Sequence record: NC_047810.1 | Strand: one strand, 5' to 3' | Source of the DNA: Escherichia phage vB_EcoS-IME253 | Length of the DNA stretch: 46,717 bases | Shown here: one piece after another, positions 39,259 through 39,681 of the stretch | Layout: each line of letters begins with the position of its first letter | Position numbering within the stretch: position 1 is the first letter of the stretch | Translations under genes and position numbers: made by a program | The notes under the pieces: model-generated | What the model was told of the DNA's origin: nothing | Seen by the model: only the letters and a program-made list of their open reading frames with translations | The model's database searches: none

Positions 39259-39681
39259 ATGCACGTAATTACTGGTCAGATTCGCCGCGCCCCATTCACC
39301 AAAGAAGGTCAAAACGCAAATGGTAACTGGAAAATGTTTGCGGTTGACTTGAGTGAGAGATACAAGGATAAAGATGGGAATGCACAGTATAGTAACTATC
39401 GCGCCGTCTTCTTCGCTAAAGAGTCAATGTTAGATTGGTACAACGAGGCGTTCCAGGAGGGTAAAGTTGTTAGCGTGAGCGCTGAAAGCCTGGCTGTTGA
39501 TGTTCGTGATAAAGATGGTAAGACCTACGTAACGATCAATATGAACAACCCTCGACTTGAGTTTAGTCAGCGTGGTGATTCACAACCTCAGCAACAACAG
39601 CAGCAGCAACAACAGCAGCAGCAGCAACAAAGACAACAACCTCAGCAACAGCAGCAGTTTGATTCTGATATCCCGTTCTAA
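39259..39681 (+). CDS. SSB-like ssDNA-binding protein with poly-Gln linker and DSDIPF tail
   Basis: C-terminal acidic DIPF tail as in bacterial SSB; 25-residue Q-rich tract. Confidence 0.55.
   Translation: MHVITGQIRRAPFTKEGQNANGNWKMFAVDLSERYKDKDGNAQYSNYRAVFFAKESMLDWYNEAFQEGKVVSVSAESLAVDVRDKDGKTYVTINMNNPRLEFSQRGDSQPQQQQQQQQQQQQQQRQQPQQQQQFDSDIPF
39583..39657 (+). repeat. CAG/CAA codon repeat encoding poly-Gln tract in SSB
   Basis: cagcaacaacagcagcag... encoding Q-rich 25-residue stretch. Confidence 0.8.

Follow-up and report, generated by a model that had tools for sequence, protein, structure and literature searches.

The glutamine tract and the gene that carries it

The DNA analyzed here, called the window at its full length of 46,717 nucleotides (nt), is a stretch of Escherichia phage vB_EcoS-IME253 (NC_047810.1). 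It contains a gene, ssb, whose product of 140 amino acids (aa) is built like a bacterial SSB (single-stranded DNA-binding protein), with an N-terminal OB domain, a glutamine-rich tract and an acidic C-terminal tip. Sequence comparisons identify the protein as the SSB of an Rtp-like (T1-like, Drexlerviridae) coliphage, and the tract is interpreted, with a probability of about 0.8, as the disordered linker of this phage SSB, an ordinary spacer between the OB core and a host-like tip. The features of the gene are the following:

39259..39681, plus strand: ssb gene of the Rtp-like phage, 140 aa and a TAA stop; PHROG 44, homologue of Rtp rtp49 and T1 gp27
39259..39573, plus strand: OB-fold domain, aa 1-105, presumed to bind single-stranded DNA (ssDNA)
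39574..39657, plus strand: disordered linker, aa 106-133, composed of GDS and the 25-residue Q tract; defined by model confidence, a glutamine content of 79% and comparison with relatives
39583..39657, plus strand: Q tract as initially reported, QPQQQQQQQQQQQQQQRQQPQQQQQ, 75 nt translated in the ssb frame
39589..39629, plus strand: 15-nt tandem repeat CAGCAACAACAGCAG, 2.7 copies (Tandem Repeats Finder score 75, 96% matches)
39658..39678, plus strand: tip FDSDIPF, aa 134-140, similar to the SSB C-terminal tip, as read from the sequence
39679..39681, plus strand: TAA stop of ssb

The initial annotation of this DNA had described an SSB-like protein with a 25-residue Q-rich stretch before its C-terminal tail. 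Nucleotides 39583..39657 indeed translate exactly into that stretch, and FDSDIPF and the TAA codon follow directly; the SSB-like character is likewise borne out by a PHROG 44 match, an OB fold and the architecture of bacterial SSBs. The tract comprises 22 Q, 2 P and 1 R, and its longest pure run is of 14 glutamines (aa 111-124). Since Q accounts for only 3.96% of the residues in the 19 long open reading frames (ORFs) of the window, taken as background, the chance of finding at least 22 Q in 25 residues is P = 3e-28; among the real reading frames of the window, no other homopolymer run reaches 7 residues. Other frames through the tract, namely a Ser/Asn-rich ORF in the +2 frame (39557..39724) and antisense poly-Leu and poly-Cys frames, were considered as genes and found to be without support.

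At the DNA level the tract is a mixture of 12 CAG, 10 CAA, 2 CCT and 1 AGA codons, with runs of a single codon reaching at most (CAG)4. Two perfect copies of CAGCAACAACAGCAG lie at 39589..39618 and form the longest perfect tandem in the tract (15 nt, twice); the repeat is the footprint of a recent in-frame duplication of five codons. Within the tract, the interspersion of CAG and CAA does not go beyond random (10 runs observed, 11.9 expected, a maximal run of 4 being typical), and for this tract taken by itself the enrichment of CAA does not reach significance (p=0.08). In the linkers of 21 genes, which are not independent sequences, CAA makes up about 53% of the Q codons; its share in the long window ORFs is 29%. 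This family-wide excess is suggestive of an avoidance of pure repeats.

Two other features of the window touch on the codons and repeats of the tract. A phage tRNA-Arg with anticodon UCU is found at 11634..11711 and reads AGA, which is the sole Arg codon of the tract; the related phage JulesPiccard has a tRNA-Arg for AGA as well. The purest trinucleotide repeat of the window, purer than the CAG/CAA tract, is a perfect (TTA)5.3 at 36990..37005; it lies inside a small ORF (36892..37173), where it is read YYYYY, in a region strongly diverged from phage Rtp.

Fold, architecture and family membership

Profile comparison revealed a match to PHROG 44, 'single strand DNA binding protein', over residues 1-140 (E=6.3e-31); the Drexlerviridae SSB profile and named members of the family are thus matched over the full length of the protein. 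The gene shares 93.8% nucleotide identity and 95% amino acid identity with rtp49 of Rtp, annotated as a putative SSB, 'similar to gp27 of phage T1'.

In the AlphaFold2 model, a monomer built on 36 family members, residues 1-105 have a predicted local distance difference test score (pLDDT) above 90 and fold into a beta-barrel in which a single helix (55-64) separates strands 3 and 4. This is a confident OB fold of the SSB/PriB type, and fold comparison gave bacterial SSB and PriB as the closest structures. Residues 108-131, corresponding to the Q tract, have a pLDDT below 50 and are devoid of secondary structure; they provide the disordered low-complexity linker that in bacterial SSBs separates core and tip. 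The acidic tip ends in D-I-P-F and, with the stop codon directly after FDSDIPF, its last Phe is the C-terminal residue, with a free carboxylate, as in the bacterial proteins. The SSB of E. coli ends in FDDDIPF (tip MDFDDDIPF), and six of these seven residues are identical in FDSDIPF. Alignment by hhalign placed residues 27-96 on residues 33-107 of E. coli SSB in the expected register, with a probability of only 47%. A structure alignment of the family, whose diversity came from a third search with the T1-type domain as query, revealed six invariant aromatic residues, Y44, Y47, F51, W60, Y61 and Y90; they would be compatible with base stacking.

This SSB lineage of the Drexlerviridae, an abundant phage family, is missed by PF00436 and by the NCBIfam SSB models, and its members are often labelled 'hypothetical protein'. 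Two records with SSB genes 83-84% identical at the DNA level carry unexpected host names, PP134917.1 'Pseudomonas phage PsgS01F' and MG065688.1 'UNVERIFIED: Campylobacter phage A110b'. PsgS01F, at 44,679 bp, has the same length and match statistics as Escherichia phage PCEc3; the host labels of PsgS01F and A110b may be wrong, or the records may be contaminants.

Variation of the linker among relatives

A Q-rich linker followed by an xxDIPF tail is present in 120 of the 120 nearest homologues, a set limited to the best 120 proteins; a second profile search, with nine diverse members as query, again gave only Rtp-like proteins among its best 120. In a larger set of 205 distinct Rtp-like proteins of 129-151 aa, with the linker taken as the segment between FSQR and the tip, linker length ranges from 17 to 39 aa (median 29, mean 28.6, sd 3.3), and 80% of the linkers fall within 26-32 aa. 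There are 181 different linker sequences among these proteins, with a mean Q fraction of 0.61, and the pattern F-x-x-x-I-P-F of the tip is nearly invariant. The window linker, with a Q fraction of 0.79, exceeds every member of this set and is the most glutamine-pure variant seen. Its longest pure Q run, 14 residues, compares with 12 in Rtp and at most 11 in the 205 database variants; runs of 14 Q were likewise found in phage SU57 and in one metagenomic relative (L024).

The trait extends beyond the Rtp-like proteins. Linkers of Webervirus, Tunavirus, Tlsvirus, Warwickvirus, Henuseptimavirus and Vibrio phages contain 30-40% Q, several of them with E. coli-like stretches (see below), and a library of 1.8 billion proteins yielded 68 representatives, of which 53 were inspected; most of these have a Q/P/G/N-rich linker and a DIPF-type tip. 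A Q-rich linker is thus a family trait, and the Rtp clade has lost glycine-rich and NEPPMDF elements.

Some distant members differ in ways that concern the linker or the tip. [quoted passage not shown] Some Drexlerviridae SSB homologues, namely L009 (IMGVR_UViG_2700988963, gene from 2501), P0300, P0298, P0304 and P0263 (178 members), have a DDDIPF that is not C-terminal, being followed by a conserved extension of 15 residues, ASVGLQYGKHRIYAL or APIGLQYGMSNIYVL. As the carboxylate of a C-terminal Phe takes part in canonical binding of the SSB tip, such tails would be masked.

Different parts of the protein are under different kinds of selection. The OB core is under strong purifying selection, the ratio of nonsynonymous to synonymous substitutions per site (dN/dS) being about 0.02-0.14. 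In the inner linkers of 205 variants (5044 residues), Q was counted 3552 times, followed by P (469), R (269), K (169), H (144) and N (143); E and D occur 3 times each, L 11 times, and aromatic residues 0 times. K, E, P, R, L and H are each one nucleotide change away from a Gln codon. The net charge of the linker varies from 0 to +5, with a mean of +2.1. Composition and approximate length of the linker are selected, and the order of its residues is free.

Over short evolutionary distances the tract is stable. An identical protein is encoded on four other contigs; two of them were compared at the DNA level, one from ERZ15185080 with 3 mismatches over 6423 bp and one from ERZ23486746 with 3 mismatches over 1690 bp, and 0 mismatches fall in the gene in either case. 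The tract is not an assembly artefact. For the SSB gene of a relative, 43 matches with at least 99% identity were found among vB_EcoS isolates, and the best 8 of the 43 are 100% identical over the full length. Linkers of the metagenomic pair L022/L023 are identical at a core divergence of 0.10 synonymous substitutions per site (dS).

At a larger distance the tract changes. Compared with Rtp, the closest relative, at a core dS of 0.19, the tract shows an indel of 9 nt, where Rtp has AAT AAT AGA (NNR), and five synonymous CAA/CAG changes lying within 20 nt. In its flanks (39400 to 42070) about 1.1% of the positions differ, so that the tract represents a roughly sevenfold local excess. Beyond a dS of about 0.2 the linkers are saturated, at about 0.3 differences per site. 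Perfect tandem duplications differ by lineage, being 15 nt twice in the window and 18 nt twice, 12 nt three times and 12 nt twice in others; these duplications of 12-18 nt show that slippage or duplication generates linker variation. All linker changes are in frame and, together with the concentration of 80% of the linkers at 26-32 aa, this indicates stabilising selection and not a switch. The tract thus turns over on long time scales and not between near-identical isolates.

Divergence from Rtp is also patchy upstream of the tract. In the interval 36700..39400 of the window, aligned with Rtp (L001), blocks with 10-49 differences per 100 nt (36700-37999, 38400-38599 and 39300-39399) alternate with blocks with 0-3, a typical recombination mosaic; the tailspike gene is 98.3% identical to that of Rtp, and ssb, as given above, 93.8%.

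Neighbouring genes, proposed role and comparison with known systems

The genes and signals around ssb are the following:

37526..38491, plus strand: PD-(D/E)XK exonuclease (DUF3799, RecE-like), first gene of an exo-erf-ssb module; Pfam PF12684, E=3.5e-21
38565..39215, plus strand: Erf-family single-strand annealing protein, immediately upstream of ssb; Pfam PF04404 ERF, E=4.8e-27
39686..39709, plus strand: intrinsic terminator between ssb and the converging tailspike gene; 8-bp stem with 6 GC pairs, loop TTTC, T run
39711-42644, minus strand: tailspike gene, converging on ssb

The order exo-erf-ssb is found in Drexlerviridae, where a converging tail fibre gene follows wherever one is annotated. 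The counterpart of the exonuclease in JulesPiccard is annotated as 'putative exodeoxyribonuclease VIII'. Searches with the OB domain alone as query gave 10 viral and 9 metagenomic related loci. Of 16 related loci that were examined, 13 have erf next to ssb, one, a Vibrio phage, has a dUTPase gene upstream instead, and two belong to cut or unannotated records. In MM01 and SU57, the site of 39686..39709 likewise has a terminator in the annotation. The window encodes a primase and helicases; a Pfam scan of six among its ORFs of at least 200 aa gave no match to a DNA polymerase, and no such gene is annotated in JulesPiccard. Presumably, the phage uses the host replisome, which fits an SSB tip of host type.

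Two further sequence elements were noted in this region. A GC-rich hairpin, GGGGCTGCGGCCCC, lies at 39222..39237, between the erf stop and the ssb start, and the equivalent site is a putative terminator in the annotation of MM01; by limiting read-through or by making the transcript more stable, the hairpin could set the SSB:Erf ratio. In the tailspike gene (42047..42092, minus strand), a perfect 21-nt tandem duplication, ATGAAATTAAGGCACCAGATA, is present in 2.2 copies, so that 7 residues, SLSGALI, are repeated close to the N-terminal part of the protein; the tailspike gene of Rtp has a single copy of the unit, and the near-identical contig L011 aligns without gaps and shares the duplication.

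By analogy with E. coli SSB, the Rtp-like SSB would coat phage ssDNA through its OB core. Because primase and helicases are present and a DNA polymerase was not found, FDSDIPF would most likely dock the ssDNA-bound SSB onto host SSB-interacting proteins (the chi subunit of Pol III, PriA, exonucleases and others). It would probably recruit Erf as well, the annealase that the phage itself encodes and that is a likely client of the tip. The tether of about 28 residues, rich in Q and P and uncharged to slightly basic, would give the tip reach and flexibility, and weak contacts between linkers may add cooperativity or condensation, as in E. coli SSB. Selection would favour Q and P, tolerate R, K and H and exclude acidic, hydrophobic and aromatic residues, while the DNA of the linker would turn over, on an evolutionary time scale, by in-frame tandem duplication or deletion of units of 3-18 nt and by point changes. 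Of this scheme, the analysis itself shows sequence, fold and predicted disorder, as well as the pattern common to the family, the stability of the tract in near-identical genomes and the constraint on composition.

Several lines of published work bear on this scheme. The linkers of bacterial SSBs are universally disordered and conserved neither in length nor in composition, while the tip is conserved and has many partners; condensation is driven by linkers rich in Gln, Gly and Pro (PMC7584906). Contacts between the amides of G, Q and N residues have been implicated in cooperativity (bioRxiv 10.1101/2022.01.17.476650), and among prokaryotic proteins with low-complexity regions SSB is one of the most frequent (PMC6821194). 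E. coli cells whose SSB has a shortened linker grow normally, and their survival after UV is reduced in proportion to the deletion (PMC12143593). By this analogy, the suggestion of the initial annotation that linker length modulates the interactions of the tail is plausible. A phage SSB recruits its cognate annealase through its last six residues (PMC5928155). No paper discussing the linkers of T1/Rtp-type SSBs was found.

The variability of the tract invites other explanations, which differ in how they account for its DNA and its composition. The initial annotation took the tract for a trinucleotide repeat prone to slippage, whose length may vary between isolates. Carried to its end, this would make it a contingency locus, a hypermutable CAG/CAA tract with slippage variants in every population that are selected by host or conditions. 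Part of the idea stands, since relatives do differ in linker length (17-39 aa in 205 proteins), several lineages carry perfect multi-codon tandem duplications, including the 15-nt one of the window, the tract is a hot spot compared with Rtp (one indel and five synonymous changes within 20 nt, where the background divergence is about 1%), and the separate 21-nt duplication in the tailspike gene indicates that such events occur in the lineage. However, a long perfect repeat is missing from the tract, where the best are (CAG)4 and the 15-nt unit in two copies; no more than 4 identical codons follow each other in an interrupted CAG/CAA mixture, and the interruption, with about 53% CAA family-wide, reduces slippage. 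Tract length did not differ among the near-clonal genomes in the assemblies compared, and the tract is the same in independent assemblies that differ elsewhere, in the best 8 of the 43 near-identical isolate genes of the relative and in linkers at a core dS of 0.10. Changes are always in frame and lengths tightly unimodal, with nothing resembling on/off behaviour, so that a contingency locus is judged quite improbable. The tract might also be a homology patch, placed as CAG/CAA DNA between the recombination module and the highly exchangeable tail-fibre module, its variability reflecting mosaic joints. Megablast alignments to most relatives do end at query positions of about 370-405, inside or just after the tract, the downstream receptor-binding gene varies widely (tail fibre, tailspike or lateral fibre), and the divergence from Rtp in the region is patchy; yet both flanks are about 99% identical to Rtp, with no change of regime at the tract, the tract is translated into a clearly selected amino acid composition, and alignment ends are expected at a fast-evolving low-complexity segment, which BLAST filters. 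A recombination junction is thus improbable as the reason for the tract.

Two further explanations place the selective pressure on the protein. Poly-Q may have been selected as a polar zipper or prion-like condensate element that clusters phage SSB, forming foci for replication and recombination that are possibly separate from host SSB. This overlaps with the linker reading and, as an explanation in its own right, is possible though unlikely. High Q is kept family-wide with residue order free and acidic and hydrophobic residues excluded, and runs of about 14 Q arose independently in at least three lineages (the window, SU57 and L024); the E. coli SSB linker drives phase separation, the Campylobacter hominis linker is prion-like in E. 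coli (PMC7584906), and for Photobacterium profundum SSB the Q-rich C-terminal domain has been compared with a polar zipper (PMC3991886). On the other side, about 25 residues are below the usual lengths for poly-Q aggregation or prions, and many members have 40-60% Q, frequent prolines and linkers down to 17 aa; moreover, glycine appears to be the main driver in E. coli SSB, and the N/Q-rich tail of Plasmodium SSB does not phase separate (bioRxiv 10.1101/2022.01.17.476650). A more specific form, in which poly-Q would be an adaptive self-association element tuned by the 12-18 nt duplications and forming condensates or cooperative filaments where Erf, exonuclease and host enzymes are concentrated, is doubtful. 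In a related idea, the family may be of chimeric origin, with a linker and tip taken from a host ssb and attached to an OB core of ancient phage descent, as the GGWGQPQQP and NEPPMDFDDDIPF stretches recall. Finally, the linker could diversify to escape host defences that sense phage SSBs. Phage SSBs are reported to trigger Retron-Eco8, Hachiman, Hna, AbpAB and DARNA (bioRxiv 10.1101/2022.08.27.505566; PMC13381803; bioRxiv 10.64898/2026.02.22.705581), and the 181 distinct linkers in 205 proteins are in line with such an arms race. The triggers described in these cases, however, are T7 gp2.5 and gp2.5-like SSBs, T4 gp32 and a Bacillus phage SSB, none of them of the Drexlerviridae SSB family; escape mutations, in these cases, fall in the folded SSB protein or its promoter, and DARNA is still activated after removal of the C-terminal Phe of T7 SSB. 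A conserved composition with drifting order also resembles the linkers of cellular SSBs, for which no arms race is invoked. This explanation is accordingly given only a very slim chance.

The reading of the tract as a disordered spacer in a phage SSB has to be set against several findings that weigh against it. A Pfam scan of the protein gave no PF00436 match at E<=0.1, and the bacterial SSB model TIGR00621 scored only 15.6 bits, with a cut-off of 53.95. With the OB domain as phmmer query, no SSB came up among PDB sequences, and none of about 330 homologues has a precomputed Pfam domain. Since the curated SSB models are not reached, family membership rests on fold, architecture and PHROG 44; on the structural model, the protein has the bacterial SSB layout, in which an acidic tip and a disordered linker follow the OB core, while the core itself is too divergent for those models. 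That the protein binds ssDNA, how it oligomerises, what its tip binds and any part of the linker in cooperativity are inferred. One clone, isolated repeatedly, could account for the near-identical contigs and for the 43 isolates, so that little evolutionary time would have been sampled, and the tract is a local hot spot compared with Rtp, indicating that some instability of the repeat is real. Finally, glycine and not glutamine seems to be most important for condensation of E. coli SSB (bioRxiv 10.1101/2022.01.17.476650), which makes a condensation role uncertain for a poly-Q linker nearly free of glycine.

The main value of the analysis lies in a correct annotation, since an SSB-type gene is recognized in a lineage that Pfam and NCBIfam SSB models miss, and its poly-Q is a normal disordered tether, neither an assembly error nor a switch. 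The findings leave current understanding unchanged: Q-rich C-terminal domains of SSBs are already known, and the window linker is the glutamine-rich extreme of its family. More than 180 linker variants of 17-39 residues, joined to a near-invariant core and tip, represent a natural library in which the effect of linker length and glutamine content on SSB cooperativity, condensation and partner recruitment could be followed, and the near-absence of acidic and hydrophobic residues illustrates cleanly how selection can act on the composition of a disordered region. A tip of host type in a phage for which no DNA polymerase was detected suggests how T1/Rtp-like phages connect to the replisome of the host; the trio of exo, Erf and SSB is also of possible practical interest for recombineering.

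Among known systems, the T1 gp27/Rtp rtp49 family (PHROG 44) shares gene order, Q-rich linker and tip with the window protein, and the linker of rtp49 differs from that of the window by its NNR interruption. E. coli SSB has the same three-part architecture, with a disordered, nearly uncharged low-complexity linker containing Q and P. It is longer (178 aa against 140), and its linker of 56 aa (PMC7145534) is about twice as long as the roughly 28 residues found here; residues 113-178 are G-rich with about 17% Q, whereas the linker here is almost glycine-free with 79% Q, and the E. coli tip has three acidic residues against two here.

Glutamine-rich SSBs are also found in cells. In those of the psychrophilic gamma-proteobacteria Photobacterium profundum and Psychromonas ingrahamii the C-terminal domain contains 30-38% Q and SSB function is retained, with up to 9 consecutive Q in P. 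profundum (PMC3991886), compared with 14 here; these proteins of cells have a canonical SSB core and a C-terminal domain of much greater length, and the linker of the window is shorter and purer. In Campylobacter hominis SSB, a Q/N-rich linker segment can form self-propagating aggregates in E. coli (cited in PMC7584906); the likeness is of composition only, the tract of the window being short and broken by P and R.

For the pairing of SSB and annealase the closest model is phage HK620, whose SSB is a distant homologue encoded by a gene that adjoins that of a single-strand annealing protein, as in erf-ssb, and whose last six residues, NDYPPF, are needed to load Sak4 onto SSB-coated ssDNA (PMC5928155). 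It may serve as a model for the putative Erf-SSB pair, although the HK620 annealase is Sak4/RadB-like and not Erf, and SSB lineage and tip sequence differ too. Contingency loci, at last, share with the tract a short tandem repeat in a coding region and indels in multiples of the unit; they have long perfect tracts and frequent clonal switching, usually by frameshift, whereas the tract of the window is interrupted, always in frame and unchanged between near-identical genomes.

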